A stretch of DNA of 64,000 bases from a virus, in IMG/VR virus record IMGVR_UViG_3300048446_000526, positions 1 to 64,000 of that record; one strand, 5' to 3'. Below the pieces are notes generated by a model. That model saw only the letters and a list, made by a program, of their open reading frames with translations. It had not been told where the DNA came from and did no database searches. The position numbers were made by a program, and so were the translations under genes. Position 1 is the first letter of the stretch. Each line of letters starts with the position of its first letter. Positions 24,092 to 63,203 of the stretch are shown here, piece by piece.

Positions 24092-27000
24092 ATGGCATCA
24101 TTTGATATAACTGCACAAATTAATCTGAGAGGGCCAACGAATGTCAAGAAGATTGCTGCTGACATTCGTAGGCAACTTTCTACTGTTACTACAGGTAGCG
24201 TAAAATTAAATATTGACCCAAAGACCAACCAACAAGTTAATCAACTTAACAAGTCATTTCAGCAGTTTAACAATACTTTAAAGCAGACAAACACTACTGC
24301 TAAACAAGCAGCCGCAAGCCTTAATCAATTAGGTTCTGCTGTTAATACAGTTAACACTAATGCTAGGGCAACCACCAACGCACTAAATCAAGTACAAACT
24401 GCAAATCAAAAAGTGGCAACTAGCACTAAACAAGTAGCCCAAAACGCCCAAGCCGCAGCAACAGGTTTCGATAAACTTGGTAAAAATATTGGTCGTCGTA
24501 TCACAGACTTTTTAGCATTTAGAGCAGTGTCTACTGTGATTGGTGGTTTAAGTTCAGCCATAAGTCAGGCAGCAGGAAACTTTATTGACTTTGAAAGAGC
24601 ACTTGCTAAAGTTCAGCAGGTTACAGGAGGAACGAATGCGTCTATTCAAGTCTTGTCCAACACCATTAATAACGCAGCCGTTGCAACAGGTTCAGCCGCT
24701 AAAGAACTAGCAGAGGTTACAGTAACTTTATCTCAGGCTGGTTTAAGTGCCGATGATACAGCGACAGCGTTAGAGGCTCTAGCACAAACAAAGTTAGCAC
24801 CTACATTTGGAGACATAAAGGATACAGCGGAAGGTGCTATTGCTATTTTAAGACAGTTTGGATTAGAAGCAGATCAATTAGGAGATGCACTAGGTAGCAT
24901 AAATGCTGTAGCAGGTCAGTTTGCTGTTAGTTCAAGTGATGTTATTGTTGCTGTTAAACAAGCGGGTGCTGTGTTTGCAAGTTCAAGCAGAGGAGTTGTT
25001 GATGCTGAGACTGCATTGCAGCAATTTATTGCAACATTTACTAGTGTTAGGCAGACTACGCGAGAAAGTGCAGAAACTATTGGTACTGGTCTTAAAACTA
25101 TTATCACTAGATTACAGAGACTTGATACCATAGAATCATTAAAAAACTTTGGCATTGAACTTACAGACCTTGAAGGTAAGTTTGTAGGACCATTTGAGGC
25201 CATCAAAAGATTAAATGAGGGATTAAAGAATCTTGATACTAGAGACATTCGTTTTGGTGCCATCATTGAAGAACTTGGTGGTTTTCGTCAGGTCGGTAAG
25301 GTCATTCCTCTTATTCAACAATTTGCTGTTGCACAAGAAGCACTAAAGGTGGCACAAGAAGGGCAGGGTTCTATATCAGATCAAGCCGTTATCGCACAAA
25401 AAACTCTAGGCTTTGAAGTTGCACAAACAGCAGCACAATTTCAAAAGTTAATTACAACAATAGGCAACAGCAGTGCTATTCAAGGAACAGTAAGGGTTGT
25501 CTTAGAATTAGCACAAGCACTTCTTTCAGTAGCAGACGCATTAAGTGATATATTGCCCCTGCTTCTTGCAGTAGGAACTAATGCTGCTATTGCAAGCATT
25601 GCAAGTGTTGGAAAAGGCATCGGTAAGTCTTTTGGGTTTAATCAAGGAGGAGTAGTACCAAAAGGCTATGCTAGTGGAGGTTATGTTCCGGGTTCAGGAA
25701 ATCGAGACACTGTACCAGCAATGCTGACTCCCGGTGAGTTTGTTATTCGCAAAAAAGCAGTACAGGCTATTGGCGTTGATAAATTAGGAGCAATGAACCA
25801 AGGAGGAGCATCTACCGTAACACAAGCCAAACACATGGGAGGCAGAATACAAAAGTTTGCAACTGGTGGACAAGTAGCAGTCGATTATGTTCAAAGCAAG
25901 CCTGACGCCGCCACAGAAAAACAGTTAATAGGAAACAATATAATCAATTCTATTAATAATCTTGCAAATTTCTTTAGTCCTGAAGCAAAGAATGTATCAG
26001 AAAGAGCCGATCCTAAGAATGTTGTTCCTAACTATTCTGGTATGGTTGGAGGAATCTTTGAAAAAGCAGTTGAATTAGTAGCAGGAGTTACAGTACCCAA
26101 GTCAAAAAATAATCAGGTATGGGACTATCCTGCTGGACTTGGAGATACCGAACTGTTTAACTATGTACCAAGTTTAAATAGACCTACAGACGCTAAAAAC
26201 AGTGTTAATAGCAATGCTGTTATTGACAAAAAACTACAAGCACATTACAACAACGCTAAAGGTTCAGAAAAATTAAGAACTAAATTTGGTATTGTTGTAT
26301 TTGATGAAGGCGTAGATTATGATTATACTTTTGATCCTTCTTATTTCAAAGAACGAGCATTAGACAAAGATTCTGTAAAGAAAGCAAGAGGAGGCTTGAT
26401 ACAAAATTTTGTTGACGGAGGCGAAGCAATACCTATAGCAAAATCAGGCCGAATCAAAAAGAAAGATTTAGCAGATGCCACTACGCCACAACTAGAACAA
26501 CTATTAAAAAATCCAGCAGTTATAAGCAATCCTTCTACTACACAAGCAATTAACAGCGAACTAGCAAAAAGAGGAAAAGAAGCCAAGGCAGAAAAATTAG
26601 GGGTTGTAGGCATACTTCCTATAAACTACGCTAAGGACTTAGCACCCGCAGATTATGGCGGTACGTTTGCTAAAATCTATGCTAGAGGCTTGCCACAAAA
26701 ATATGAAGAAACCGTACTCAATATCTCTAAAGGACTAAGAGGGGTTGTAGACGAGGCAGCAAGAGGATTAGGTGAAGACAATCCACAGGCTCTTTCTCCT
26801 GAACAAGAAAAAGCAACCGGACTAGAAAACGTACAAGGAACTGTTTTTGAAGCAGTGCTTTCAGCCCTTGGTGCAAGAGGCGGGAGCGTACAAAATCAAG
26901 CCATTGATTACCAAAATGGTCTTGGTCCTGCTGCAAGAATATTTCCGGGTATTGGTCCAGATTGGCCTACAGAGGTCAAACGAGATGTAACTGGTGCTGG

Positions 27001-30000
27001 TATGAGTAGGGCAAAAGGAGAGTTTGCCAGATACTTTAAGGAAAACGCACAAAATAAAAGCATAGGAGGAGCAATACAAAGATTTGCTACCGGAGGCAGA
27101 GTAAATGATAAAGCAGGACTGAAGATTAAAACTACCGGAGGAAGCACAATCACTTCTACTTTTGAAGAAGGCCAAACTAGTTCTGGAGAAGTGGTGGCAC
27201 AGAATATAGGCAAAAATTTATTTTCTGTTGTTGCTGCTCAGGCATCAGGTGGTGGAGGAAGGGCTTTATACGATGCTGCTATGAAACAAGCGACAAGACA
27301 AGGAGGAAGTTTGGTTTCAGATAGAAGCAGAGTTAGTTCATCGGCCTTAAATCGTATTTGGAATACATACTATGGTACGGGTAAGAGTAAAACAGGCCAG
27401 AGAGTTGGCAGGCAACCTGTACCAGAAGACATGCTTTATACAGGTGCGTTCTTTAAAGATTCAGATTTTCCAAGCCCTGATCCTTCAACATGGCAAGGTA
27501 AGGCAGTGTCTTTGCAGTATGCATATCAACAATTTGCAGATGGTGGAGCAGCATCAGGAGGAGATACGGTTCCTGCTATGTTGACTCCCGGCGAATATGT
27601 TATTAATAAAAAAGCAGCAAAACAAATTGGTTTACCCAAACTTAACCAAATGAATTATGCTGATAGGATTAAGGGATATGCAACAGGCGGGCCTGTTGGT
27701 CCGGTGCAGTACTTTAACAATGGAGGATCACCTGCTTCCGGTTCTGCTCCTGCCAGCAATCCTTGGGTAACTGCCGCAAAGATTAATTTGACTGCTGCGA
27801 AACTTAATCAAAAAAACGCAACAACTAATAGTAAGACAGCGGCTACAAACGGGCAAGCAGCAAATACAACCTCGAACAGCGTAAACAATATTCCTAAAGA
27901 AATGGGTATTGGAGCAAGACTTGCTTTCGGGCTCATAGGCCCGCTTATTGAACAAGCAATCGTAAAAATAGCACCAAATAGTGCTATTGCTGCTGGTGCT
28001 GGAGAAGGTATTAGTCAGGGTATTGTGGCTTCTTCAACGTCTAAAGAACTTCTTGGTGGTTTAAGTGGAGCGGCAAAACTTGCCGCTGGAAGGTTTGGAA
28101 AGTTTGGAAAACTTTTAGTTACTAGTGGGAAATTTTTAGAGAAATGGACCGGGACAATTACAACAGGAATAGGCCTCTTCGCTGGTTTTAACGGGTTCCT
28201 TAGTGGTCAATTAAACAAAAGTATAGAACTATTAGCCCTAAGAACCACTGAAGCAGGAAAAGCGGCAGAAGAGGCATTTGCAGGTCTACCGGGAGTAATA
28301 GCAAAAATTGGTACTAACGCAGAAGACTACAATGCCATATTATCAGACGGTGGTGCAAAACTAGCAGATATGATTACAGCAGCAGAAGCACAGAGACAAA
28401 AATCCCAACAAAAAAACCAAGGAGGATATTTTGGTGCAGCATTTAGAGGTCTTGGACTTGAAAGTGAGGAAGGCAGAGAAATTAGAGAGGCTCAAGGAAG
28501 AGACATAGACAGAGAAGCATTTAGGGCAGCAGGTGATTTAGCAACCAAGCAACTGCTGGCGATTGTTTCATCGGGCGACAGCGTAGAAGAGGCATTTGGG
28601 GGCAACAAAGTCGCTTTGGATAGTTTCAAGAGAGCCATAGCACTTACTGATCTTGCATATCAAAAAGAAGAGAGAAGATTACAGGATTTAATTAATAAGG
28701 CTGGAGCACAGTCGGCAGCAGGTCAAGCCTATACAGAAGAACTTAGAAAGGCTCGTGAGGATGCTTTCAAAAAAAGAGCAGCCGATGTTGACGCAGCAAT
28801 AGCATCCCAAAAACTCAAGAAAGAAATAGAGGAGCAAAGAAAGGCTTTAAATTTAGCAACAGTAGCCATTGCAAACTATACCATAGCCTATAACAAGGGT
28901 GCTGACCAAGCAGCATTTGCGTTTAAAAAACTGGCTAAGTCAGCAGATCGTATGGCTGAAGGACTCAGTGGAACTGATCCAAGTCAATTATTTGCTGATA
29001 ACATCAATGTTATACAAAACCCTGAACTCTTTAATCAAACAGACAACACGCTCGCTCTTGAACCTCTGAAAAATATATTAGGAGGTAATCGAGATGCTAT
29101 TCAGGCATTTACAACTCTTCCCGCTGAAATTGCAGGAGCACTGCAAAGAGCCGTTAATCAAAACCCTGAAAACAATGCACAAGGTGCTGCAATCATACAA
29201 GGTGAAATAGACCAAGTTCTCGCTGATAAGTTTGGTAGCAATAGTCTGTTCGCTAGGACACTGAGCAATAGCATAAAAGGTTTAATAGCAGAAGCACAAG
29301 GAAATCAAGATGGTGAATTTAATGCAGCAGCATTGATCAAAGGCACTACGGAGATTATAGAAAAGTTTGGTGAAGATGTTAAAAAAGGTTTAGTAAAAAG
29401 TTTAGAAACCATTCAAGAGGCATTCGGAAAATTAGCACAATCTTCTGCTAGACTTTTCCAAGCACAAAACAATTATGCTAATGCGGTCAGGAATAGTGTT
29501 ACAAGTCAATTAAAACTTAATCAAGAGATTAAGGAGGCATTATCAGAAGTTCGTCAACCTAGAAGTATATCTTCAATAAATGATACAAGTGGTGTTTCTC
29601 AACAACAAGTTAGTAATGCTGGGGACTATTTCCAGCAGTTGGCTATTATACAGCAGGAGCAAACCAGACTCAATGTAGAGCAAGTCAGGCTGACACAAGA
29701 AGGCATAGACAAAGACGGTGAAAACGCCACAGAAATCGCTACTGCTATAGGAGCCAACGAAGCAGCCCTAGCAAACCTAAATGCTAATACCAAGAATTTA
29801 CAAGCCGCTTTACAAGATAAATTAGGTCAACTTCAAAGTGAACTAGGAAGTAGACTAGCAGACCTGAAAGCGGAACAAGCAGCAGCAGAAAGTATTTTTG
29901 AAAGCCTGTTAAAGGATGAAGGAGATACTAATCAAGGCATATCAAGGGCGTTGCAGGTAGCAAGCGGTCAGGGCGTTGGTAATCTTACCGGAGACGAGGC

Positions 30001-33000
30001 TATTCGTGTATTGAAAGATATTAAGCAGTTGCAGGCTGCTGGTATTATAGAAAACAATAAAGAGACAAGAGAAAATGTAGTAGGGGTTCTTGGTGAATCA
30101 AGAGGACTTGGTAATTTTACTGGCTTAGGACAAGAAATTATAGATAAGATTATTAATGCACCGGGAGAGGATGATCAGGTTAAGGCCTATGTAGCAGAAA
30201 TACAAAGAACTAATATTGCTATTAATCAACTTACATCTGCTTTGGCTTTCACAGAATTTAGCAATGCCTCCAAAGCATTGAATATTTCACAGGACGCACT
30301 AAGAGTTTCTATAACAACACTTAACGATACTATAAAGTCGGAAATAGGTAAAATTAAAGCCAACGGAGGACAAGACGTAGAAGGGATTACTAATGAACCA
30401 GAAACAAAAGCAAAAGGAGGTTTAATTTATCGTTCAAGCGGTGGTGGTACACAAAAGGGAGTAAATTGGCAACCTAGAGGAACAGACACTATTCCAGCAA
30501 TGCTCACTCCGGGTGAATTTGTAGTAAATGCAAAAGCCACATCGCAAAATAGAGGTCTTCTTGAGTCTATAAACAGATCGTCTGGTGGTCCTGTATCACC
30601 TGCTAGAAAAAGTACTGGAGGTATTCTTTACAGAAATGCTGGAGGAGGCACTGATAGTTCTTCAACAGAGAGTGTTGGATCAATACTTGATGGACTTAAT
30701 GCAAAGCAGATATTAAATCTCTTGAAAGAAGCAGACTTTATGAAAGAAGGGGGTGCGTTGAACAGCATTAGAGATTGGACATCCAATACAGCAAGTGCCG
30801 TTAAGTCAGCCATAACCAAAAGAGCAAGCGGAGTTTATGGAGGTTTTAAGAATTTTGGAAAAATTAAAATTCCTACATGGATGGATGACGCAGTTAAAAA
30901 CGGCCTTTTAAGTGAAGATGTAGTAGCAGGTTTAGCCGATAAACCATATGCGGTTACTAAATTCCTTAGAGGAAAAATAGATTCTCTTACTGCTGGCCCA
31001 GTTGCACAACGAATAGGACAATTTACTGGTGGGGCTTACAAGTTTGCAAGTAATAAACTAGGCTTACTGGCTCAATCTAAGTGGATTAAAAATATTCTAG
31101 GTCCAGCAAAGAGTGTTCTTAAATATATTCCGAAACTTGGCTCATTCCTTGGTAATTCTCCTGCTTCAAGTCTTGCAAGCAAAGGACTTGCGTGGGCAGG
31201 TCTTGTTGAGCATATGATATCAGGTGCTTATGCAGGAGTTAATAGAAGTCAAGATTTGCAAGATTCGGGAGTTAGTCCTTTGTCGTTTCAAGGAATAATG
31301 TCTCCTTTGGCTGAATTTCTTGCAGGAGGAACCGCTGACGGTGCTTTGCCTCCAAACGCAACAAAAGAGCAAAAGGCAGCATGGATGGAAGGAACCAAGA
31401 ACGGAAAAATTCCTCGATACAATTCGGCTAGTTTTCAGGCATGGGGAACCGCAAGTCTAAGTAATCTACTTAGAATGGTTGGAGGAATGGGTACTGGTTT
31501 TACTCTTGCTGCTCAATATGCCCCAGCGGCAATGCCTTATTCGGGAATGATTGGTGCTGCTGTTGGAGGCGGCATAGTTGTTGCTGGTCAAACTTTCCGA
31601 ACCCTTGAAGAAATCGCTGGTCTTTGGGGAGATCAACCAGACCTTGCTCAAACAAGAAGACAAGAACAACAAAATGAAGACTCGAAGCAAAGTTTCGTTG
31701 GCGACACTAAAGACCAACTACCGGTTCTTGGTGACTTGCAATACAACAGGGCTGTCTTTGCAGGACAAAAGAGAGGAAAACTCAAAAAATATGAGAATGA
31801 TAAAGCCAGATGGAAAGAGGTTGAAAAACAAGGTGCAGCAGTTAAAGTTAATGATGTAGATGCGTGGGCTTACGTAAAAAGTAAATATGAAGCCGGTTTA
31901 CAATCGCATAAGTTTGATGTAGAAGATGGTAAATTTTTAAGAAACCTTATTCCTGTAAAACAGCAAGGTTATCTGTGGGATCAATATAGCGACGAAGATA
32001 TACAAAAAGCCTATACCGCTGTTATGCTGGCTTCAGAAGAGAAGTGGAAAGACTTACCTCTCATAACATCCCTTAATCCTAATAAGAATATTAATTTAAC
32101 TTATGGTGATAATATTAAAAACTTGAGGGCTGTTGCAGAAAGCACACAAACAAGATTATTTGGAGACGGTGAGGATAGACCAGCAGATGAAAATTATTTT
32201 GAAGGAGATGATAAGTTAAGAAGTATTATGGCTCAAAAGGGCGAATTGTATAATGCGAATGCCTCTTGGTTGGAAACATATGTTGGTAGCGAAACAAATC
32301 AAGATAAAAGCGAAATGGATTTCTTAGATTACGAATCTAGTAACTTCACTAAGATATCAGAATACAATAAGGCAATAAAGGCTAGGAGAGCAGAACTTAT
32401 TCAAGAAGAGAAGGATAGGCGAATTGCAGAAGCAGAGACAAAGAAGGCAGCAGAAGACAAGCAAAACGAAGAAGTCAGAAAGTTCGGAGGACTACAACAG
32501 AATTTACAGTCTCTTACATCAGCAGAAAATCCCGACTTTGAGTTTATGCCACAGGCTCCATTTATTAAGCCTAAATCAAGGTTGATACTTCAGCGGCAAA
32601 AAGATAGTTTGGCAATGAGACAGAAACTTGCAGAGACACCTGTATTTTACCCAGATGAAAACGATAATCTTGTACAAGGACCACCAATGGGTGAGTACTT
32701 AGATTGGAAGACAGGTGCGTTTACAGATAAGCCTGAGTTAATTAAAACTAAAAGCGAATATGATTTCTGGTCAGGAATTGGTAATGCTATAGTAGAATAC
32801 AGAAAAAATTACAGAGTCGGTGGTGACCTGTATGATGTGCTTCCTACAGTCCATCCATCTCAGGCTATATTAAAAGACATTGCTGGTGGCACTCAAAGTG
32901 AGCAAATTGCTTTTAGAAACTTTATGAATCCAAAAGCAACAGACGCTAAAACTTCAACCGCTGGTGCTTTTCAAGAGTTGTTCACAGATTATCCTACAGA

Positions 33001-34696
33001 ATTTGCGAATATAACTAAACTTTCTGAAGAAGAGAGCAAACTACCTCAAAAAGAACAAGAAAAACTTATACAAGGCAGAAGAGATGCACTCATTGCTAAA
33101 CTTGCTACCCAAAACGGCTTACTGGATGGTCAAGGTCAGCAGGCAATTTACAATAAAATCGCATTGGCATTATCTCCTCTAGCAGGCGACTATTATGAAA
33201 ACATTAAGGGAGTAAATTTTTATACTGATAAGTACACTCCAGAGCAAATTTGGACTGCTAGTAATCAGAACGGTCAGTTTGGTCTTGGTCTAACATCAAT
33301 GATAGGGGCTATGGGTGTAGACAATGCAAAGGAACTATATCCTCAACTTGCTGGTGCTAAAAAAGGTATGGATTTTGCTGAACTCAAAGGAAATTACCAA
33401 AAGAGAATTCAAAACCTGTATAAGGTTCGTGGAGATGATCCTTTTGAAGAACAAGACTTACAAAGACAAAGAAGCAAAGATAAAGCCCAAGCAGATGCTT
33501 ATGCCAAACAAGAACGACAAAGACTCAAGAAGGTTGAAAACTATGCTAGACTTAATCTTGTAGGTCAAACTTTTCCTGAAGACCCTCTTGAGTATGTAGA
33601 CTTTAGACAAAAACAAACAGATGCTTTCTCAAGGTCTGTAGAAGGTTTTGGTCCAACTTATCCTGTGCCTTCTGATCTTATAGCATTCAAAAACGGTGGT
33701 GTGTCTGAAAGATGGGTAAGAAAATTATTCACTCTTAAAGATCAAGCATCTAATTTTGAACTTAGTCAAAAAACAGCAGAAGCACTACTCAGATACAAGG
33801 CTCAGTTCGGTGAAGGCACTGACGCAGAACAATGGCTCTCTAAGGTTTACCAACTTGATGGCAAAATTGATATTGATGATATATATGCAAGTACTCCGGG
33901 TGAAGGTGGTGCAGCAAGTGCAGCCTCAGATTTATCCAATATTCAAACTAAGATAAGTGATGTAGAGAAGGTAGTAGCAAGCATAAAAGGTAAAGCAAAT
34001 TCTAAAAACGCTGTAGCAAGAAGAAAACTAGAAAATTCTATGGTAGACTTGAAGGTTGCTGGGCTGTGGAATCCTGCTCAGGGCGTAGACCAAAACGCAC
34101 AGAGCCTTATGAGTCTGAGTCAGGGACAATTTGCAGCAGACCCACTTTTAGATAAACTCAAAGAATATGGCGATATCAACCTTTCTGATAAATTCCGTAA
34201 TGCTAAGGCTATAGGCCTAGCAACAGGAGGGATGGTTCCAACAAGCGTATTTACTCCTAGAGGCACAGATACCGTACCTGCTATGCTCACACCGGGAGAG
34301 TACGTTGTAAATAAGAAGGCCGCAGCAGAAAATAGACCTTTACTAGAGTCTATTAACGGTAAAAGAAAGTCCAGAAACCCCAGAAGTTCATACTATCAGG
34401 ACGGTGGTAATGTGAGCAATAATGGTGTAAATAATGTTGTCGCAATAGATGTGCAGGAAATCAGCAAGTTTGTTACCTCATTTGACAGATTTAGTAAAGA
34501 ATTAGCCAATTTGAATATTCCTTCGGAAATTACTCTACAAGGAACACACACAGTTGATGTTAATGTAAACGGGGCTCAAGTCTTGAACGACTTACTTAAC
34601 GGCCCGATTGGTGAAATGGTAGCCAGCGAAGTAGAATTGGCGTTCCAAAGACAAAGCAACGAATCAGAAGGGGCAGTACCAAATCCATTTAGTTAA
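24092..34696 (+). CDS. Tape measure protein (TP901-type core) with embedded enzyme-like domains
   Basis: AGGAGA RBS. TP901/PhageMin_Tail-like core (FERALAKVQQVTG...LSQAG...AILRQF...RESAETIGTGLKTI). Ala/Gln-rich coiled coils; four DT[VI]PAMLTPGE[FY]V motifs. Confidence 0.9.
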   Translation: MASFDITAQINLRGPTNVKKIAADIRRQLSTVTTGSVKLNIDPKTNQQVNQLNKSFQQFNNTLKQTNTTAKQAAASLNQLGSAVNTVNTNARATTNALNQVQTANQKVATSTKQVAQNAQAAATGFDKLGKNIGRRITDFLAFRAVSTVIGGLSSAISQAAGNFIDFERALAKVQQVTGGTNASIQVLSNTINNAAVATGSAAKELAEVTVTLSQAGLSADDTATALEALAQTKLAPTFGDIKDTAEGAIAILRQFGLEADQLGDALGSINAVAGQFAVSSSDVIVAVKQAGAVFASSSRGVVDAETALQQFIATFTSVRQTTRESAETIGTGLKTIITRLQRLDTIESLKNFGIELTDLEGKFVGPFEAIKRLNEGLKNLDTRDIRFGAIIEELGGFRQVGKVIPLIQQFAVAQEALKVAQEGQGSISDQAVIAQKTLGFEVAQTAAQFQKLITTIGNSSAIQGTVRVVLELAQALLSVADALSDILPLLLAVGTNAAIASIASVGKGIGKSFGFNQGGVVPKGYASGGYVPGSGNRDTVPAMLTPGEFVIRKKAVQAIGVDKLGAMNQGGASTVTQAKHMGGRIQKFATGGQVAVDYVQSKPDAATEKQLIGNNIINSINNLANFFSPEAKNVSERADPKNVVPNYSGMVGGIFEKAVELVAGVTVPKSKNNQVWDYPAGLGDTELFNYVPSLNRPTDAKNSVNSNAVIDKKLQAHYNNAKGSEKLRTKFGIVVFDEGVDYDYTFDPSYFKERALDKDSVKKARGGLIQNFVDGGEAIPIAKSGRIKKKDLADATTPQLEQLLKNPAVISNPSTTQAINSELAKRGKEAKAEKLGVVGILPINYAKDLAPADYGGTFAKIYARGLPQKYEETVLNISKGLRGVVDEAARGLGEDNPQALSPEQEKATGLENVQGTVFEAVLSALGARGGSVQNQAIDYQNGLGPAARIFPGIGPDWPTEVKRDVTGAGMSRAKGEFARYFKENAQNKSIGGAIQRFATGGRVNDKAGLKIKTTGGSTITSTFEEGQTSSGEVVAQNIGKNLFSVVAAQASGGGGRALYDAAMKQATRQGGSLVSDRSRVSSSALNRIWNTYYGTGKSKTGQRVGRQPVPEDMLYTGAFFKDSDFPSPDPSTWQGKAVSLQYAYQQFADGGAASGGDTVPAMLTPGEYVINKKAAKQIGLPKLNQMNYADRIKGYATGGPVGPVQYFNNGGSPASGSAPASNPWVTAAKINLTAAKLNQKNATTNSKTAATNGQAANTTSNSVNNIPKEMGIGARLAFGLIGPLIEQAIVKIAPNSAIAAGAGEGISQGIVASSTSKELLGGLSGAAKLAAGRFGKFGKLLVTSGKFLEKWTGTITTGIGLFAGFNGFLSGQLNKSIELLALRTTEAGKAAEEAFAGLPGVIAKIGTNAEDYNAILSDGGAKLADMITAAEAQRQKSQQKNQGGYFGAAFRGLGLESEEGREIREAQGRDIDREAFRAAGDLATKQLLAIVSSGDSVEEAFGGNKVALDSFKRAIALTDLAYQKEERRLQDLINKAGAQSAAGQAYTEELRKAREDAFKKRAADVDAAIASQKLKKEIEEQRKALNLATVAIANYTIAYNKGADQAAFAFKKLAKSADRMAEGLSGTDPSQLFADNINVIQNPELFNQTDNTLALEPLKNILGGNRDAIQAFTTLPAEIAGALQRAVNQNPENNAQGAAIIQGEIDQVLADKFGSNSLFARTLSNSIKGLIAEAQGNQDGEFNAAALIKGTTEIIEKFGEDVKKGLVKSLETIQEAFGKLAQSSARLFQAQNNYANAVRNSVTSQLKLNQEIKEALSEVRQPRSISSINDTSGVSQQQVSNAGDYFQQLAIIQQEQTRLNVEQVRLTQEGIDKDGENATEIATAIGANEAALANLNANTKNLQAALQDKLGQLQSELGSRLADLKAEQAAAESIFESLLKDEGDTNQGISRALQVASGQGVGNLTGDEAIRVLKDIKQLQAAGIIENNKETRENVVGVLGESRGLGNFTGLGQEIIDKIINAPGEDDQVKAYVAEIQRTNIAINQLTSALAFTEFSNASKALNISQDALRVSITTLNDTIKSEIGKIKANGGQDVEGITNEPETKAKGGLIYRSSGGGTQKGVNWQPRGTDTIPAMLTPGEFVVNAKATSQNRGLLESINRSSGGPVSPARKSTGGILYRNAGGGTDSSSTESVGSILDGLNAKQILNLLKEADFMKEGGALNSIRDWTSNTASAVKSAITKRASGVYGGFKNFGKIKIPTWMDDAVKNGLLSEDVVAGLADKPYAVTKFLRGKIDSLTAGPVAQRIGQFTGGAYKFASNKLGLLAQSKWIKNILGPAKSVLKYIPKLGSFLGNSPASSLASKGLAWAGLVEHMISGAYAGVNRSQDLQDSGVSPLSFQGIMSPLAEFLAGGTADGALPPNATKEQKAAWMEGTKNGKIPRYNSASFQAWGTASLSNLLRMVGGMGTGFTLAAQYAPAAMPYSGMIGAAVGGGIVVAGQTFRTLEEIAGLWGDQPDLAQTRRQEQQNEDSKQSFVGDTKDQLPVLGDLQYNRAVFAGQKRGKLKKYENDKARWKEVEKQGAAVKVNDVDAWAYVKSKYEAGLQSHKFDVEDGKFLRNLIPVKQQGYLWDQYSDEDIQKAYTAVMLASEEKWKDLPLITSLNPNKNINLTYGDNIKNLRAVAESTQTRLFGDGEDRPADENYFEGDDKLRSIMAQKGELYNANASWLETYVGSETNQDKSEMDFLDYESSNFTKISEYNKAIKARRAELIQEEKDRRIAEAETKKAAEDKQNEEVRKFGGLQQNLQSLTSAENPDFEFMPQAPFIKPKSRLILQRQKDSLAMRQKLAETPVFYPDENDNLVQGPPMGEYLDWKTGAFTDKPELIKTKSEYDFWSGIGNAIVEYRKNYRVGGDLYDVLPTVHPSQAILKDIAGGTQSEQIAFRNFMNPKATDAKTSTAGAFQELFTDYPTEFANITKLSEEESKLPQKEQEKLIQGRRDALIAKLATQNGLLDGQGQQAIYNKIALALSPLAGDYYENIKGVNFYTDKYTPEQIWTASNQNGQFGLGLTSMIGAMGVDNAKELYPQLAGAKKGMDFAELKGNYQKRIQNLYKVRGDDPFEEQDLQRQRSKDKAQADAYAKQERQRLKKVENYARLNLVGQTFPEDPLEYVDFRQKQTDAFSRSVEGFGPTYPVPSDLIAFKNGGVSERWVRKLFTLKDQASNFELSQKTAEALLRYKAQFGEGTDAEQWLSKVYQLDGKIDIDDIYASTPGEGGAASAASDLSNIQTKISDVEKVVASIKGKANSKNAVARRKLENSMVDLKVAGLWNPAQGVDQNAQSLMSLSQGQFAADPLLDKLKEYGDINLSDKFRNAKAIGLATGGMVPTSVFTPRGTDTVPAMLTPGEYVVNKKAAAENRPLLESINGKRKSRNPRSSYYQDGGNVSNNGVNNVVAIDVQEISKFVTSFDRFSKELANLNIPSEITLQGTHTVDVNVNGAQVLNDLLNGPIGEMVASEVELAFQRQSNESEGAVPNPFS
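25706..25744 (+). repeat. TMP motif copy 1, DTVPAMLTPGEFV
   Basis: Read directly from the translation. Confidence 0.9.
27563..27601 (+). repeat. TMP motif copy 2, DTVPAMLTPGEYV
   Basis: Read directly from the translation. Confidence 0.9.
30485..30523 (+). repeat. TMP motif copy 3, DTIPAMLTPGEFV
   Basis: Read directly; extends as PRGTDT...VVNAKATSQNRGLLESIN. Confidence 0.9.
34268..34306 (+). repeat. TMP motif copy 4, DTVPAMLTPGEYV
   Basis: Read directly; extends as PRGTDT...VVNKKAAAENRPLLESIN, closest to copy 3. Confidence 0.9.
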
Positions 34697-34713: not shown

Positions 34714-37700
34714 ATGGCAGACGAATTTACAACAGGTAATTTATTTTTAGGTTCTGGTACTAATGTATCAGAAACAGAATTTGATATAAGGCTTTCTACT
34801 GATGAAGGTCTTTCTACTTTATTTAATGCTAGTGGAGTAGATACTGATTTCCGTGTAAATGCTTCAGGGAAGGTGGGTCTGCACGTAGACGCAGACACAG
34901 GGCGTGTTGGTATAGGCACCGGCAACAATATAGGAGCAGCATTGCATGTAGTTAGCACTTGTGCGAGTGATGGGCTTAGAGTAGAGACCAGAACAGACTG
35001 TCCTACTGGAGTAGAGATTGAATTTATTCACAAACCCCAGACACCTCCAGTAAATGGTTCACTTCCTGTACAAATTAATCTTGCTGGCAGAAATCAAAAC
35101 AGTTCTGACGTAAATTATGCTAGGATTAAAAGTAGAGCACTCTCTACTGCTACAAGTCAGGAAACAGGCGAATTAGTTTTCACTGTGATTAAAGACGGTG
35201 TTGATGTAGATGCACTTGTAATCAATCCATTGACAACTTCTATCGGATCAGAAAACTCACAATCAGGAGATAATTACCTATTCATTGGTAGCAATAACTT
35301 AGTTTCTGGTAATAGTTTTATTATCTTTGGTTCTAATAATACAGGCTTAATAAACAACGGTATACTTTTAGGTGCCGATAACCACATTCATGGAGACAGA
35401 CTGCTAATTGTTGCAGATAACTCTGTTGTTTCTGGAGACCAGAATATTGTATTTGCTTTAGATAGTGAAATTTATGGTGACTCTAACCTTGTTATTGCAG
35501 AAAATGTATTCACTGACGGCGATCAAAACATTGTCTTTGGACACAATACAAATAGCACTGGTGATTTTAATATCTTGCTTTTAAATGACTCAGATAATAT
35601 AGGCAGTAGCGGAGTAGGTTTTGGTAACCAATCTTTAAATGTTGGTAACAACAATGTCTTTGTCGGTAACTTTAATACTGTGGATGGTGATAATGACCTT
35701 ATTATTGGTTCAGAAGTAGAGGTTACTGGTGACAACAATATTCTTTACGGTTCTGAATCTAGTGTCAGTGGTAGCAACATTATTTCTATAGGTGCTGGAA
35801 ACGATGTACTTAATATCGCAAGCGGTGTGTTTATAGGTTCAGATATTGACTTGAGAAACAGCGAAAAGTCAGTTGTAATCGGTTTGGCGAATGCAACAAC
35901 TGGTAGTTTAACATCTAGTGTTATACTGGGCTTAGAAAATGATACTACCAACGGTAGACCAACAGGGGTAATTATTATTGGACAACAGAATACTGTTTCC
36001 ACTATAGCCAACACAACAATAATCGGTAATCAAAATGAAGCCAGTGGTTTGGTCCTGAACAACTTAATATATGGGACTCTTAACTCTGCACCAACAGATA
36101 GTCGTAATAATGTAGTTGTAGGTGTTATGAATAATACCACAGGCAACATATTGTCCGCTGGTACTTTACAGCCTAGCGGTCGTAAAGATGGTACTATGGC
36201 AAATACTGTAGTATACGGTATTAACAACATAGTTTCTGATGTTAGCGGAAGTAATGTTCTAGGTAGCAAAACTTATGCAGAGGGTCAAAGCATCAATGTT
36301 TTGGGTTCTCTTAATCAACTCAAAGGCTCTAATGATACTCAGATATTAGGACATTCTAATTTTAGTGTGGGCAACCACAATACTATTATTGGTAGCCATA
36401 ATGATATTATGGGTTCTCATTCTATACTACATGCCGCATCTGATGATCGTAACCAATTATTTGGTAGCGGTAACATATCTATTGGTAATAGTGAGGCCGT
36501 AGTTAGCGGTATGACTATTGGTTTTCAAAACGCAATGAATGCACCTTTCGGTATTGTTTATGGTAGCGGAAACCAAATAGGTCTGAGAAGACATTTGTTT
36601 ACCGTAGACAACAACGGCAGTACTACACTGAGAGTTAATGGAGATCAAACAAACGTATATGAACCTAGTATGGTAATCTTGCTTGCTATGGTCAATCCTA
36701 CTTCATCAGGTGATAATACCAATATTAAATCTATTCAAACAGTAACCTATAACAACGGAGGAGGCGTAAATGACTATACTGATATAGTTATAGATTCAGC
36801 ACCTTTGTTGCCTTCTACTACAGTCAACTATCAAGTCAACGAATTTTTTGATGAAGAAACCTATCAATTAGGTGATAACAGTGTTATTAGTGGATGGATC
36901 ATGCCTTATCAGTCAGGACAAAACACTGAGATAGACACCATTAATTTTCCAAGATATGGTTACTCATCAATTATACTAGGTAACAATAACAAATCCCTAC
37001 ATGCCAGCGGTTTGATATTTGGTCAAGAAAATAACGTGTCTGGTAGCAGGCACGTTGTAATTGGGAATAATATTTCTGGTTTTTATAATAACGCAGTACA
37101 AATTGGTACTAACAACACTAACAAAATGTATCTAGATGATGATTCAGTAATTTTTAATACTGGTGCTAGTCAAAATGACATTATTTTTAATAGCAGCACA
37201 GAAGGTGTTACGGCTTACTTTGATCTTGACGAAAACAGAGTAGGGATCAACAACGCTGACCCACAAACTACGCTTGATGTTTCTGGCGTGATTACTGCGG
37301 GTGGTATTAAATTACTTGGAGATTTTTCAGAAAATAGTGGCTGGATACCAATTAATACAGGAGACGGCACTGTACAGTGGCAGAGACCAACTACTCTATC
37401 AGGCATAAACAGCGGTATATGCATGAAGGTTAGTGACTATGTTTCTAGCGGATTAGAAACATTTAACTACAACACATCTAGTCAGACTATATTCTTTGAT
37501 CGTAGCAATATCCGTAGAGATGATAGATATGTTTACGATAAAGATGCCGGAGATTCATTAGAAACCGCTATAATGATCGACACAACCGGGATGTTTTTGA
37601 ATATTGATCCTAATGGAAGAGACAATGGATACAACTTTACTGTTTATGGATCGGGAAGCAATGCTCCTTTAAACAACAGAGATGGTACTGATAACGTATA

Positions 37701-39324
37701 TTTAATTAAAACAGATGTGCCTAGAGCAGAAGTACAGTTTACAAATTTGACAGGACTTAGTGGTGCATTTAATGAGTTTATAATTAATGACGCACTTAAA
37801 GTTCCTCCTAATCTTACAGGAACATTCTTGTACTGTGATTCTAATAATGATAATTTGTTACGGTCAAAAGTCACACCTAATTTCAGTATTTTGTTCACTA
37901 GAAACGACAGTTGGCAAACAGGAGAGGCGAGTTTAAGATATTTTTATAATGATCAAGTATTTACTATTGGTGGAGACGGTGAGACCAATGCAGCATTGGA
38001 TGTAGGTTATGAATCGAATGAACCTAATAGTAATATCGTTTTAGCCCATACTCAAGACCAAAGAACAATATTTAATAATCGTAGTTATGGCACAGAGTTT
38101 GTCATTAAAGAATCTGGTGCTTCTAATGGTAATTTCAACGGTTTTCACTACAATACAGAAAGTGGCGTATTAGGCCTTAATGTTAATGATGCAACAGATG
38201 TCGTTAAAGAAGGAACTGCTAATAGTCCTACTCCTTGGTATGACAGAACTAGCAGTCAAGAAACTATGGTAATGTATGCCAATGGTAAGATTCGTGTAGA
38301 AGGTCTGCAAATGGGTGCTGGTGGTGGAACTTTTAATGCGTCTATAAAAGACCAGTTTCTTACAGTGGTTGACGACTACGGCAATATCGGTTTTGCTACT
38401 CCTTCAGTAGATCAAAGTTTTGATGTTAGATTTCCTTTGGCTATTAATGGTCAGACATCTCAAGACGTTACCATGTATGAAATATCTGAAGATGATGAAG
38501 ATGGAAACAGCCTAACAACAAATCAAAGAGGCATGGCTTTAATATGGGAAGGTACTCGTTGGGTTCAAGGTGCTAGCAACGTAGGCTATTGCACCAGACT
38601 TGGTATTCCAAGTGCCTCCACTCCAGACAATTATTATACTTCAGAAGGTAGTAGTTTTGGACCTTATGCAACACTTCCTTCAGGTCAGCAGAACTCATTT
38701 GTGATTGCTGGTCAACCAATCGTTGAAGAAACAGCCCGTAGAGCAAATCCGGGTCATTCAAGAAGTATGCAACAAGAAACCACTATACTAAAAGCCATAA
38801 CAACAGGAACTAATACTGAAGAATTAACTACAAGTTTCACAAAGGGCAGCACTGGCAACGGTGCTACTGGCACTAATACGATTTCTCTTATTGTAAACCC
38901 AGAAATTCCCAACGATATATATCAGCAAGTTGTATGGAAAGTTGAAATTGACTATGTTGTAATGACACAACAAGACGGTGGAAGCGACAGTAACCTTACC
39001 AATCTTGCTGCAACCGTTGGCAAGTACACGGCTGGCTTAAAAATATTTAGTGATGCTCAAGGTCAACGTCAAGCAGGTGCTCTCTTTGGAGGTGTGTTTG
39101 ATAGTGTTCATGATGGAGGAGGACCGGGGAACATATTTGGAGGGCTTGATGCACAAAATGGCCCGATTACTGTTTCAATAGATTCTACTAGTACTCCGTA
39201 TCGTTTATCGCTCAAGACTGTTGGACCGGGAGGTGGTTACACCTCTATTTATGAAGCAGTAGTTAAACTTACACAAATGCAAGTGCCTTGGAAGATGCCT
39301 TTCACAGGGTCCGATCCAAACTAG
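34714..39324 (+). CDS. Tail fibre/spike with YadA-head-like beta-roll repeats
   Basis: Many ~14-aa N-x-[IV]-[IVF]-G-x-x-N repeats (~35235-36590 and ~36955-37120); fibre motifs GRVGIGT and RVGINNADPQTTLDVSG; AGGAG RBS. Confidence 0.7.
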   Translation: MADEFTTGNLFLGSGTNVSETEFDIRLSTDEGLSTLFNASGVDTDFRVNASGKVGLHVDADTGRVGIGTGNNIGAALHVVSTCASDGLRVETRTDCPTGVEIEFIHKPQTPPVNGSLPVQINLAGRNQNSSDVNYARIKSRALSTATSQETGELVFTVIKDGVDVDALVINPLTTSIGSENSQSGDNYLFIGSNNLVSGNSFIIFGSNNTGLINNGILLGADNHIHGDRLLIVADNSVVSGDQNIVFALDSEIYGDSNLVIAENVFTDGDQNIVFGHNTNSTGDFNILLLNDSDNIGSSGVGFGNQSLNVGNNNVFVGNFNTVDGDNDLIIGSEVEVTGDNNILYGSESSVSGSNIISIGAGNDVLNIASGVFIGSDIDLRNSEKSVVIGLANATTGSLTSSVILGLENDTTNGRPTGVIIIGQQNTVSTIANTTIIGNQNEASGLVLNNLIYGTLNSAPTDSRNNVVVGVMNNTTGNILSAGTLQPSGRKDGTMANTVVYGINNIVSDVSGSNVLGSKTYAEGQSINVLGSLNQLKGSNDTQILGHSNFSVGNHNTIIGSHNDIMGSHSILHAASDDRNQLFGSGNISIGNSEAVVSGMTIGFQNAMNAPFGIVYGSGNQIGLRRHLFTVDNNGSTTLRVNGDQTNVYEPSMVILLAMVNPTSSGDNTNIKSIQTVTYNNGGGVNDYTDIVIDSAPLLPSTTVNYQVNEFFDEETYQLGDNSVISGWIMPYQSGQNTEIDTINFPRYGYSSIILGNNNKSLHASGLIFGQENNVSGSRHVVIGNNISGFYNNAVQIGTNNTNKMYLDDDSVIFNTGASQNDIIFNSSTEGVTAYFDLDENRVGINNADPQTTLDVSGVITAGGIKLLGDFSENSGWIPINTGDGTVQWQRPTTLSGINSGICMKVSDYVSSGLETFNYNTSSQTIFFDRSNIRRDDRYVYDKDAGDSLETAIMIDTTGMFLNIDPNGRDNGYNFTVYGSGSNAPLNNRDGTDNVYLIKTDVPRAEVQFTNLTGLSGAFNEFIINDALKVPPNLTGTFLYCDSNNDNLLRSKVTPNFSILFTRNDSWQTGEASLRYFYNDQVFTIGGDGETNAALDVGYESNEPNSNIVLAHTQDQRTIFNNRSYGTEFVIKESGASNGNFNGFHYNTESGVLGLNVNDATDVVKEGTANSPTPWYDRTSSQETMVMYANGKIRVEGLQMGAGGGTFNASIKDQFLTVVDDYGNIGFATPSVDQSFDVRFPLAINGQTSQDVTMYEISEDDEDGNSLTTNQRGMALIWEGTRWVQGASNVGYCTRLGIPSASTPDNYYTSEGSSFGPYATLPSGQQNSFVIAGQPIVEETARRANPGHSRSMQQETTILKAITTGTNTEELTTSFTKGSTGNGATGTNTISLIVNPEIPNDIYQQVVWKVEIDYVVMTQQDGGSDSNLTNLAATVGKYTAGLKIFSDAQGQRQAGALFGGVFDSVHDGGGPGNIFGGLDAQNGPITVSIDSTSTPYRLSLKTVGPGGGYTSIYEAVVKLTQMQVPWKMPFTGSDPN

Positions 39325-41041: not shown

Positions 41042-44000
41042 ATGGCAGTAGACAACGGGCCTATAACTTGTAGTAATTTAAGCGTAAATCAAGTAGGGCC
41101 GTATAGCCAAACTCTGGTTTTAGGGTGCAGTGCTACAAATCTAAGTATGAACGTAGGATGGGGTTCTACCAGCAGTACTTGTTCTATTACGATGGTACGA
41201 GACACCTGCCGTCATTGGAGAGATGAAACGTATGATGAATCTAATACCTACTGGCAAAGTCTTCTTCAGCAAGGACCGGACAATCCAATAGGAAATGCGT
41301 TACCAAAAGGCCCAGATGGAAACATAGACCCATCTCAATCAGACCCAAGAAGAACTTGGCAAAAAAATATAGCCCGACAACAAGTAGCAGAACAAAACTA
41401 TAAATTAAATAATCAAGACAGCAATCAAGCATACGGTGACTTTGGAAAACAAATGTGGTATTCTAATTTGGCTGGTGGTTTTGGCATGGTAAATTGGCTT
41501 GGCCCAGACCCCGGATTTTTAGCCAACTCAGACAATGCTGCTACACAGATTAATAATCCCGGTGCTACTGTAGGCTATGATGTAAACGGTACTTGTGTTT
41601 TTGTAAAAATGGAAGACTTGTTTTTTGGAGGAATAATTAAAAGTTGGGAAAACAGAGCAGCCCAAGGAGGAGTCACTACTTCTGTACAATTAGAAAGTAT
41701 GGCAAGCCTACTTAAAGGCACTAGTATGATTATAAATAACTTCAATGGTTCTGTTGGTAGCAGATATTATTCTGGATTTACTGATATTCCTATTGTTACT
41801 GTACCTAGTAATGATGTAGATGGAGATGTTGGTGTTGGTGCCAATATATATAACGGTAGTGTCAGAGGAGGTAATCACCCTAATTTAATCAATTTACAAG
41901 GCCTTGCCAATTTTGTTTATGGTTTTAGTGGTGCTTCTTGGGCAGGAAGCAAGGGTGTTAGTGCTGCTGATATATACTTTATGATTAATAGTGTTCTTAA
42001 CCCAAGTAATATATCTCTACCAACAAGCCCGTACTTTCCTTATGGTGCTTTAGTTGGAAGAAGTTTAATAGACAGATTTACTGGTAGTTTTATTGACACA
42101 AATCAACAGGTTCTATCTTATGGAAATACACAGATTTCTTACGAAGCATTAGGATGGATGCCTACAAAACTCGCTATCGACAACAGGTTCAGACCTATGT
42201 TTTCATTAGATTTAAGCGAAGTTCCTGTTCCTCCAGCAGACATATATTTTACTGAAGACAGTCTAACCATTACAGCATTTTTAGACGCTATCTCTCAAGG
42301 AGGCCAATATGATTACGTCATAGACTGTGCTCCAAGTACCAACCCTCTGTATAGTGCTTGCATCAAGGTTAGAACAGTCAATCGTTCAATAGCGGTTCCT
42401 CCTAATACTCTTGGCAATGCACTTGCTACTAGAGATGATTTTCAAAATGTAAATTATGGTGAAGAATTTGATACGGCAGATGTTCGTGAGGTTATAGTAG
42501 GTGCTCCTCAAAAAAGACTGATGCAGTTTACAACTATAGGCAAGTCTATATTTCAAGAAACAAGAGTTTACGATCCTTTTGTTGAAAGAGGAGGAGGACT
42601 CGTAAGAGGTTCTGATGTAGTTGTTCCTTATGGTTCGCAAATGGTTACAGAGTTTGATCCTGACCCAGAAGTAGAACTAGATACTGTTAATGTCCAGCAA
42701 GGACAAAATTCTTTCCAGCCTAATCTGATAGACATAAGATGGTATAAATCATATAGGGTTGGTGCTGGCGTGGTGGCACAACAAACTACAACAGATCAAT
42801 TTTTTAGAAATTACAATAATGGTGGTAGCCAAGGAGTCAAAAAACTAGGCAACTATGGGCTAAAAACATTTGTTCGTATGCCTGCTGGAATTGACCAAGA
42901 GGCAAACTCATATCCCTTGTGTTCAGACTTAATTAGTCCTTTCTACGGCAAAGACAGCACAGGCAACATTAGGCTTGTTTACTTTGATCGAAAGATGGGT
43001 CAAATTCAAGTTATGACAAGTGTTTTTGATTGGAGACTATGGTGCAGTTATGCAACACCAGATTTTGCACAGCCAACACCTAATAATGCGAACGGTGAAG
43101 GACAAGGCCAAGGAGGAGAACCCGGAGACGATACCATAGGCGATGACGAACCAACCAATCCAGTTTTTAGAGTAGTAGGCACACAATGGGTTATAACAGA
43201 AACCGAAATCAGAGCAGCAATGTCTGGTATCGACATTTTCTTTCATTATTTATTTGATGAATATAAAAATGGTTTTGTTACCATGACTGCTAAATACTTT
43301 TATGATTACATAGCAGAGGCTTTTTGTACGAATGTTGCGGATCAATTACTAAATGGTGGTCAATGGTGGGAAAACACCAAAGAGATAGACTCTAGTAAAG
43401 CAGCATATCCTAATGCAGATGGTATATTTATAGCCGATGGACCAGATGGAGCCACAGACAGTAGATGGGTTCCAGCATTAACAGACTATAGAGTTTTTCA
43501 AGAACTTAAAAAATTAATGAAGTTTCTTGCTGAAGATATTGGTGAATATCATGCAAAATCTTATTTAATCAGAATGCCGCAGGTATACTCTTTTACAGAT
43601 CGTGCCGGAAACAGACAATACAATTACCAGCCATCTGATTTTGGATGGGAAGAAGAAGGTAATCCTTTGGATGACACTATGGTAATAGGTTCTTCAGCAT
43701 CACGAACGCTAGCAAACGGAAATGGTACTTTTGGTCCTATGGTGGGCTTTCTAGCAAATCTAGAATTTGATGGACAGAACCAAACTTTTACTGAAGATGA
43801 AATCACCCAAATGAAATTACCGGAACAATGTCCAGAAGAACCTCCTCCACAGCAACCAGAAGCAGAAGACCCAAAAGAAGATGCTGCTGGTGATAAATTA
43901 CCAAACGGAGCAAACCCTCCTAATGATCCCGGCAGGCCTCCTCTTCCGAAAAATGCACAGCAAGGACCAGCAGCACAATCATCAAGAAATACTGTTTCTA

Positions 44001-62307: not shown

Positions 62308-63203
62308 GCTATGTATGCCTCTCTTATTTTCTTGTTGAATATTTCTGTAATCCTAGTTTGAAAAGTACCAAAACTGTAATTGTCTTCCAAATATTTTCTA
62401 TTCGCTGTAATATCTTGTTTTGTTGACAACAGACTTTGGACTGTTTCTAACATTTTAGCACCGTTATTTTGTATTGTAATTCCCGGTGATTGTTCAATAA
62501 CGCTGTTTGATCCTATTACTGATGCACCGCAAGCGACCGCACATAGAGCCTCATAGTTGCCATTTAAGGTGGTTGTTATAAAAACCTTATGTTTCTTCAC
62601 TTGGTTGCTAAAATCCTCTAATGTATGAAAATGAGGAGTCAGATTGCATGTCAAGCCTGCTTGTTGAAACTGACCAGCCAGTTGTCGTCCCAACATGCTA
62701 GTGTCATGTATAAGGACATCTTCTGATTGTGTAATGTCTTCATCTGTTAAAAGATCAAGAGGTACGCCAAATTTAACAACTTCAGAATTATTAGGCATTC
62801 CCCATGTGTCTGCTATACCTTGCGAAGTATAAAGTTTAAGAACCTGATCACTTCTTTGTGCCAAAATCATCCAATCTTCTTTTTTAATATTGCCTCTTGG
62901 CATATTAAGAACCAAAATCCTATTAACATGACGAGACATTGCTTCTTGAGCACTATTGTCGTTAATATTTCCTGTTACAACAAGACTGTATTTTTGGTCG
63001 CTGTGATATGGCTCTGGTAAAGTAATAGCGGTTCTGCTAGAAGGATTTTTAAAATTTGGATTCTGCATAGGCCTTAAATAGTACCTAAAACCAGTTTCAA
63101 AAAAAGCACAGTCTAGTAGTGAACCAGTAGGGGTCCAAGAGATATTGTGATTATCATCAATAAGACAATGTAAAATATTTGTTGTGGCTCTTGCTAGTTG
63201 CAT
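62304..63203 (-). CDS. Degenerate GT-B glycosyltransferase-like protein
   Basis: VVKFGVP...KVFITTT...EALCAVACGASVI resembles a GT4 C-terminal domain. Confidence 0.5.
   Translation of the reverse strand: MQLARATTNILHCLIDDNHNISWTPTGSLLDCAFFETGFRYYLRPMQNPNFKNPSSRTAITLPEPYHSDQKYSLVVTGNINDNSAQEAMSRHVNRILVLNMPRGNIKKEDWMILAQRSDQVLKLYTSQGIADTWGMPNNSEVVKFGVPLDLLTDEDITQSEDVLIHDTSMLGRQLAGQFQQAGLTCNLTPHFHTLEDFSNQVKKHKVFITTTLNGNYEALCAVACGASVIGSNSVIEQSPGITIQNNGAKMLETVQSLLSTKQDITANRKYLEDNYSFGTFQTRITEIFNKKIREAYIA

Follow-up and report, generated by a model that had tools for sequence, protein, structure and literature searches.

Enzymes fused to phage tape measure proteins (TMPs) are established, namely gp96 of P23-45, pb2 of T5 and the hydrolase motifs of mycobacteriophages. 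In the Thermus phage P23-45, gp96 is a TMP of 5,002 amino acids (aa) fused to an active virion RNA polymerase (PMC10770324). In T5, pb2 is cut after R1127, which frees a muralytic metallopeptidase piece that remains in the tail tip (PMC10038345). The TMP of mycobacteriophage TM4 contains embedded peptidoglycan-hydrolase motifs according to Piuri & Hatfull 2006, as cited in PMC13277306, and contractile injection systems possess TMP-like effectors, Sle1/Tme, with exchangeable domains (PMC13277306). In the case of lambda, a C-terminal piece of ~14 kDa, gpHC (roughly aa 690-853), is cut from a Gly-rich region of gpH, the precise cut site and the protease having remained unknown for 40 years; lambda and T5 are the only phages whose TMPs are known to be cut (PMC12617516). 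Polyvalent proteins are giant virion-delivered proteins stringing together GNAT, ADP-ribosyltransferase, nuclease and other conflict domains, for which processing into pieces has been proposed (Iyer et al. 2017, PMC5512222). Here, a giant TMP is described from positions 1 to 64,000 of the IMG/VR virus record IMGVR_UViG_3300048446_000526, the whole stretch of DNA that was analysed (hereafter, the window). Its predicted enzyme-like cassettes are parted by Gly-rich joints derived from a unit of the lambda gpH type. With moderate confidence, these joints can be regarded as seams between cassettes that would be delivered to the host as enzymes.

Repeated units, joints and relatives of the giant TMP

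The TMP gene is the longest complete open reading frame (ORF) of the window, according to the ORF list and its translation. Pfam PhageMin_Tail (PF10145) matches at aa 194-393 with an E of 7.4e-22 and 78.6 bits against a cut-off of 33.2, which bears out the identification as a TMP made in an earlier sequence-only reading of this DNA. Eleven PHROG TMP families match as well, and several of them span aa ~40-540. The N-terminal core is terminated by a hydrophobic Gly/Ala-rich stretch (aa 469-509), located by a hydropathy scan, and a segment homologous to this core was found in 52 of 59 giant relatives. The syntenic orthologue in relative L005 has 3525 aa and an overall identity of 41%, with seven ORFs in identical order around the TMP gene; it lies in a 171-kb record rated complete by CheckV, and syntenic or related complete records measure 171-238 kb. 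The Pfam and PHROG matches, together with this complete 171-kb record of the same gene order, identify the gene as that of a TMP; the phage is uncultured and large, and its tail module is of the siphovirus type.

Within the protein, the core motif DT(V/I)PAMLTPGE(F/Y)V occurs in four copies (aa 539, 1158, 2132 and 3393), each inside a unit of ~70 aa. The full unit has the consensus phi-x-x-GG-x-V-x-x-FAxGG-VPGSG-x-x-DTVPAMLTPGEFVI-x-KKA...IG...L..MN...(Y/F)AxGG. A shorter joint pattern, GGxI(Q/Y)x4GG, is situated at aa 583, 767, 992 and 2109; a close variant, GGILYRNAGG, occurs at aa 2176. The joint, of consensus phi-x-x-GG-x-I/V-x-x-F-A-x-GG, corresponds to the Gly-rich head of the full unit, and joints of the form GGxIQxF(A/V)xGG bracket three modules, A, B and C (Table 1). 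In 2000 shuffles of the protein, GGxI[QY]x4GG occurred 0.002 times on average (observed, 4), [FY][AV]xGG 0.33 times (observed, 6) and the core motif 0 times (observed, 4). No shuffle attained the observed counts of the joint or core patterns; the repeated joints and core motif go beyond chance. The peptides quoted in the sequence-only reading were all recovered where it had placed them (FATGG at 25856, FADGG at 27533, and KARGGLIQNFVDGG and KSIGGAIQRFATGG at 26381-26422 and 27056-27097), as were the flanking and later pairs at aa 517, 1197, 2107 and 2174, LATGG and YYQDGG.

Table 1. Position and basis of the features of the TMP gene (window coordinates) and of the ClpP-family proteases of complete relatives (coordinates of each relative)
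Feature	Position	Strand	Extent	Basis or characteristics
TMP gene	24092..34696	+	3534 aa	Pfam PhageMin_Tail, PHROG TMP families, gene order as in L005
Canonical TMP N-terminal core	24092..25636	+	aa 1-515	Pfam and PHROG matches; hydropathy scan
Unit 1: FNQGGVVPKGYASGG + DTVPAMLTPGEFV... + joint 1 HMGGRIQKFATGG (25832-25870)	25640..25870	+	aa 517-593	Peptide location; unit profile
Module A	25871..26380	+	aa 594-764	Weak paralogue of second half of B; E657, D678, D700-x-K702
Joint 2: KARGGLIQNFVDGG	26381..26422	+		Peptide location; low model confidence between modules
Module B	26423..27055	+	aa 778-988	Predicted alpha/beta domain, halves B1 (~812-895) and B2 (~898-988); AlphaFold2 model and conserved columns
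Joint 3: KSIGGAIQRFATGG	27056..27097	+		Peptide location; left edge of module C insertion/deletion
Module C	27098..27532	+	aa 1003-1147	Predicted GNAT-like fold; invariant G1054, G1056, L1059, Y1060, D1061, R1078, W1090
Unit 2: FADGG + DTVPAMLTPGEYV... + YATGGPVGPVQYFNNGG	27533..27727	+	aa 1148-1212	Right edge of module C insertion/deletion
Unit 3, with KAKGGLIYRSSGG and KSTGGILYRNAGG	30410..30649	+	aa 2107-2186	Peptide location
Unit 4, with LATGG ... YYQDGG	34214..34411	+	aa 3375-3440	Peptide location
ClpP-family protease, G001	123259-123705	-		
ClpP-family protease, G002	195570-196061	+		
ClpP-family protease, G003	132372-132878	-		

A profile of ten units aligned with aa 731-788 of lambda gpH over 57 columns (hhalign probability 94.8%, E 5.5e-8), and BLASTP with pieces of the unit reached the same protein at E 0.004-0.006. 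The repeated unit is homologous to the single unit of lambda gpH and thus an ordinary TMP feature, hence the tblastn matches of the region to many TMPs; these fall in 120 phage records and are mostly confined to the unit-1 and unit-2 stretches at the query ends. Furthermore, the hydrophobic Gly/Ala stretch precedes unit 1 in the same arrangement as before the lambda gpH unit. Owing to this lambda-like arrangement, aa 1-593 look like a complete ordinary TMP to which the remainder has been added. Hydrophobic Gly/Ala-rich stretches lie at 25496-25618 (aa 469-509), 27908-27979 (aa 1273-1296) and 31526-31588 (aa 2479-2499) of the window; the last two sit downstream of units 2 and 3 and are possible membrane-insertion segments.

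Relatives were collected with HMMER: aa 593-1150 served as the query against the full set of 1.8 billion representatives, which yielded 76 proteins. Nearly all of them have 2,000-7,000 aa and those tested share the PhageMin_Tail N-terminus; the present TMP belongs to a family of giant TMPs of this size. In 60 giant relatives, [FY][AVS]xGG was observed 376 times versus 25.8 expected, an enrichment of about 15-fold. Module C is wholly absent from the two closest relatives, P0002 and P0003, and the gap is flanked by FA(T/E)GG, from joint 3, on one side and by FADGG, from unit 2, on the other; P0002 is 94% identical to this TMP in A and 89% in B. At the same place, C is present in the more distant syntenic L005 with 72.7% identity. 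In module A, L005 is 55% and P0003 42% identical to this TMP, and in module B, P0003 is 78% and L005 56.5% identical; the ranks of identity thus flip across joint 2, and the modules form a mosaic. Not every member of the family has A or C (A is present in only 4 of 59 relatives), other unknown segments occupy further slots, and the architectures vary. The 327 inter-joint segments fall into 100 clusters, 71 of which are singletons.

In many relatives, an insert of ~145 aa splits B1 from B2, for instance at aa 1002-1144 of P0010, aa 990-1134 of P0004 and aa 1148-1294 of the L036 TMP. The consensus of 45 distinct insert sequences keeps DFDxTL, TARP, K and DDn, the four motifs of HAD phosphatases; Pfam is silent on the insert, and the four motifs are what points to a phosphatase. 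Taken together, the comparison of relatives supports a cassette organisation with the joints as recombination seams, that is, evolutionary seams at which relatives gain, lose or exchange cassettes. At the DNA level, the three joints share short identities only, such as ATACAAA, long enough to provide micro-homology, but too short for homologous recombination of the classical kind. The expectation of the sequence-only reading that the linkers would stay constant while the content between them varies agrees with the enriched joints, the loss of C, the mosaic identities and the variable architectures. Its image of a swappable magazine holds for the exchange of cassettes at the joints and overstates the freedom of B and C, which are widely retained; B in particular looks retained rather than freely exchanged.

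Modules A, B and C

Module C was modelled from an alignment of 28 sequences with a mean predicted local distance difference test score (pLDDT) of 89.8 and a predicted template modelling score (pTM) of 0.84. The top Foldseek matches are all GNAT acetyltransferases, although weak (best E 0.03), and nearly all the best matches have the GNAT fold, whether drawn from the Foldseek candidates or from 48,161 chains scanned without bias. Two glycines, G1054 and G1056, are invariant in the 28 sequences; in the C model they follow strand 45-54 and precede helix 58-71. This is the strand-4/helix-3 junction, the position of the motif A loop (Q/R-x-x-G-x-G/A), where GNATs bind the pyrophosphate of coenzyme A (CoA). 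C is accepted as GNAT-like in its predicted fold, and its GxG loop is where a GNAT would have it. The C family exists outside TMPs too, beside conflict-type enzymes, as judged from the domain makeup of two proteins: in P0055 (1367 aa), three C-like repeats come first, then two GNAT domains recognised by Pfam and an HNH motif, and in P0076 (343 aa) an ADP-ribosyltransferase exoenzyme domain is joined to a C-like piece. Small homologues of C were also sought with a word index, and none came up.

Module B (aa ~780-990) was modelled by AlphaFold2 with a pLDDT of about 90. Its conserved positions are E920, D939, G943, G945, P959, T960, E961, K963 and R964, among which D939 and K963 are invariant, and E920 and E961 nearly invariant. 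In the 422-residue model, E920 is situated in helix 331-345, and E961-V-K963 in strand 380-385. Compared with B, module A is a weak paralogue of the second half, with the same residues kept (E657, D678 and D700-A-K702 in A): hhalign aligned the two with a probability of 79% and an E of 1.6e-5 over 67 columns, and cross-matches occurred as well. Both modules carry an E..D..(D/E)xK signature like that of PD-(D/E)xK nucleases, a likeness of signature only. Few homologues of A exist, and for this reason A was modelled at a pLDDT below 50. The three globular modules that had been read from the sequence are consequently upheld in the models of B and C, but not in that of A. The enzyme-like character claimed for the inserts between motif copies 1 and 2 finds agreement in the predicted GNAT-like fold of C and the signature of A and B.

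Proposed delivery, possible cleavage and rival readings

The reading favoured with moderate confidence starts from a part that looks like an ordinary TMP and consists of the PhageMin_Tail core, the hydrophobic Gly/Ala stretch and one gpH-type end unit. Beyond ~aa 590, unit-derived Gly-rich joints part the folded cassettes, with further full units closing each block. While part of the TMP, the cassettes would sit in the lumen or tip of the tail in an extended or loosely folded state; they would leave the particle before the DNA does, regain their fold inside the host and function there as enzymes. The requirement of a GNAT for acyl-CoA points to the cytoplasm as the site of action. The cassettes may remain fused, as in P23-45 gp96, or be freed at or near the joints, as are the pb2C piece of T5 and gpHC of lambda. 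Finished proteins thus probably reach the host through the tail, and delivery of active enzymes by the TMP is likely; the host-takeover or anti-defence role proposed in the sequence-only reading is conjectural.

Several observations weigh against this cassette-delivery reading. A lumen of ~4 nm is too narrow to hold three folded domains per TMP when three or six copies of the protein are present. Pfam gave no match to A, B or C even at E 10, nor to two long later segments; on C, no curated GNAT model matched at this threshold and Pfam was silent on the small homologues too. Neither the profile of A and B nor that of C matched any PDB sequence. Four structure searches with B, including Foldseek, VIA and BFVD, gave no nuclease and nothing convincing; the best Z on the B core was 3.6, to small GTPases, in a search that used the 422-residue model with its A part below pLDDT 50. 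It is the conserved polar residues and not a fold that would make A and B enzymes, since B has no fold match and A a pLDDT below 50. B and C recur in most relatives, a prevalence that is biased because the relatives were fetched with an A-B-C query. Finally, no protease with a preference for GG was found in this record, which is 58% complete.

The last point bears on another reading that is possible, if doubtful: a true polyprotein, in which the units and joints are maturation cleavage sites for a phage or host protease, or for autoproteolysis, and A to C are released separately in the tail or after ejection. Both TMPs known to be cut, lambda gpH and T5 pb2, are cut near a C-terminal Gly-rich region, and the joints of the present TMP are modelled as low-confidence, flexible and exposed stretches between folded domains. 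T5 pb2 reads FVPR/AEGGMMYPG at its cut (slash), which directly precedes AxGG, and the freed piece is an enzyme. However, the adenain analogy predicts a cut after GG, and the T5 cut falls before AxGG. Homology of the unit to pb2 was rejected, with an hhalign probability of 0.1% for the unit profile and nothing from BLASTP at the cut site. As neither method detects a relationship, the likeness to T5 is taken as a resemblance of four or five residues, in the letters AEGG..PG..GE..VV only. The lambda unit is located inside gpHC, and the gpH cut site is probably upstream of it.

The search for a matching protease, suggested in the sequence-only reading with adenain as one model, gave no match in this 58%-complete record. 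There, C39 (PF03412), the C48 adenain clan (PF02902), S78 (PF04586) and ClpP proteases gave negative results; S78 and S77 were likewise absent from three complete relatives, C39 and C48 having been searched in this record only. In favour of a polyprotein, each of the three complete relatives has a single gene for a ClpP-family protease (about 225 aa), the only kind of candidate there, which is probably the head maturation (prohead) protease. The matching region is missing from this partial record. Overall, cleavage at the joints is possible, with a rather low probability. The strongest form of the idea is unlikely: the gpH-type unit and its GGxIQxFAxGG derivatives would be recognition elements of a conserved TMP maturation cleavage, the TMP would be a genuine polyprotein from which an acetyltransferase and two enzymes of nuclease-like type reach the host cytoplasm before the DNA, and the lambda gpH cut could be placed by the same rule.

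A structural reading is improbable. It takes the units and joints for elements at which the tail tube, the tip or assembly chaperones dock or hinge, and the modules for non-catalytic spacers or plugs that set the tail geometry, in place of delivered effectors. The unit is indeed general in ordinary cargo-free TMPs, as the 120 tblastn records with little beyond units 1 and 2 and the single unit of lambda indicate; the lack of an enzyme fold match for B and the retention of B and C by many relatives fit as well. On the other hand, B and C have invariant Gly, Asp, Glu, Lys and Arg positions of a kind that typically marks ligand or catalytic sites and not spacers, and the C model combines a GNAT fold with the CoA-loop glycines. 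Meanwhile, close relatives dispense with C, and the domain that relatives insert into B carries the complete set of four HAD phosphatase motifs. An artefact, in which faulty assembly or sequencing had joined several genes or the contig was chimeric, was raised for the unusual length alone, with nothing for it, and is rejected as having a negligible chance, given the uninterrupted 10.6-kb frame, about 60 independent giant homologues with the same N-terminal core and unit layout, and the syntenic orthologue in the complete 171-kb record.

TMPs leave the virion before the DNA; should they regularly bear exchangeable enzymes, as the cassette-delivery reading would have it, then tails deliver ready-made proteins, which so far has been shown in single cases only, the RNA polymerase of P23-45 and the muralytic peptide of T5. 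The candidate early-acting enzymes would comprise a GNAT family that is divergent, an alpha/beta domain that is new and whose signature is nuclease-like, and the HAD-motif insert of relatives. In addition, the repeated unit ties the giant TMPs to lambda gpH and would offer a sequence handle on the cleavage site and protease that have been missing there.

Around the TMP gene, small ORFs lie upstream and giant ORFs downstream on the same strand, and the window has a tail-fibre-like gene upstream. The adjoining genes gave no family match in the family searches. Megablast of the TMP gene against 50,697 phage records gave no match, so that nothing similar at the DNA level exists among GenBank phage records, and single-protein scans of viral and metagenome contigs found no close relatives. 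An ORF of >3490 aa, open at the window start, occupies 1-10473, and ORFs of 1536, 1970 and 2982 aa occupy 34714-39324, 41042-46954 and 46964-55912, all on the strand of the TMP gene; the latter three have no PHROG match, and the first was outside that search. Proteins of >1500 aa fill more than half of the window.

The complete IMG/VR record has 87,412 bp (completeness by CheckV), and several of its other genes lie beyond the window. On the minus strand at genome positions 66537-70987 (L001:3538-7988), the DNA polymerase III alpha gene is divided into two ORFs, the first with PHP and NTPase domains and the second with finger, HhH and OB domains; between them lies a 230-aa ORF for an RNase T/DnaQ-like exonuclease. 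Three group-1 glycosyltransferase genes are situated in the early/replication arm, at window 63194-64000 (continuing to genome 64315), genome 64315-65988 and 85487-86923 (minus strand). At genome 72313-73386 (minus strand; L001:9314-10387), a protein of 357 aa combines a prepilin N-methylation motif with SBP_bac_10/DUF1559 (E 5e-45). This combination is greatly expanded in Planctomycetota and may hint at the host.

Comparison with known systems

A literature search found no paper on cassette arrays separated by repeated gpH-type joints in TMPs, and the described systems each share a part of the present arrangement. One is lambda gpH, with one copy of the ~60-aa unit, FATGG...GEFVFTKEATSRIGVGNLYRLMRGYATGGYV, at aa 731-788 after a hydrophobic Gly-rich stretch, and with proteolytic processing in the unit region into gpH* and gpHC (PMC12617516). 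Nevertheless, the lambda unit is single and near the C-terminus, without an inserted folded domain or a known enzymatic activity, whereas in the present TMP four units and three short joints bracket the cassettes. T5 pb2 is a TMP cut between a hydrophobic stretch and an enzymatic C-terminal piece, with an AEGG after the cut that recalls the AxGG of the joints; it differs from the present TMP in its lack of detectable homology to the unit profile, and in its single C-terminal enzyme, which targets the cell wall and not the cytoplasm.

P23-45 gp96 is likewise a giant TMP and carries an experimentally active enzyme that is delivered by the tail and acts before phage gene expression. However, the enzyme is another one, is located near the N-terminus and is thought to act while fused, and no cassette array or repeated delimiter has been described there. 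The TMPs of mycobacteriophages and the Sle1/Tme effectors are similar in that the TMP scaffold tolerates inserted or exchanged modules acting on the target cell, but these are single small motifs or C-terminal domains of other folds, with no repeated delimiter.

The delimiters of polymorphic toxins provide an analogy only. VENN in CdiA and DPxGL in Rhs mark the seam of exchangeable cargo, and the Rhs cargo is cut there; their sequences and delivery systems are unrelated to the joints described here. Polyvalent proteins are described as head- or DNA-associated (MuF, N4 vRNAP-like, DarB-like), the word 'tape' being absent from PMC5512222; no GG delimiter has been described in them, and no processing peptidase domain of the zincin type was seen in the present TMP. 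As to domain content, one GNAT-like and two nuclease-signature modules are predicted within the present TMP, a virion protein, and its relatives add the HAD-motif cassette and others.

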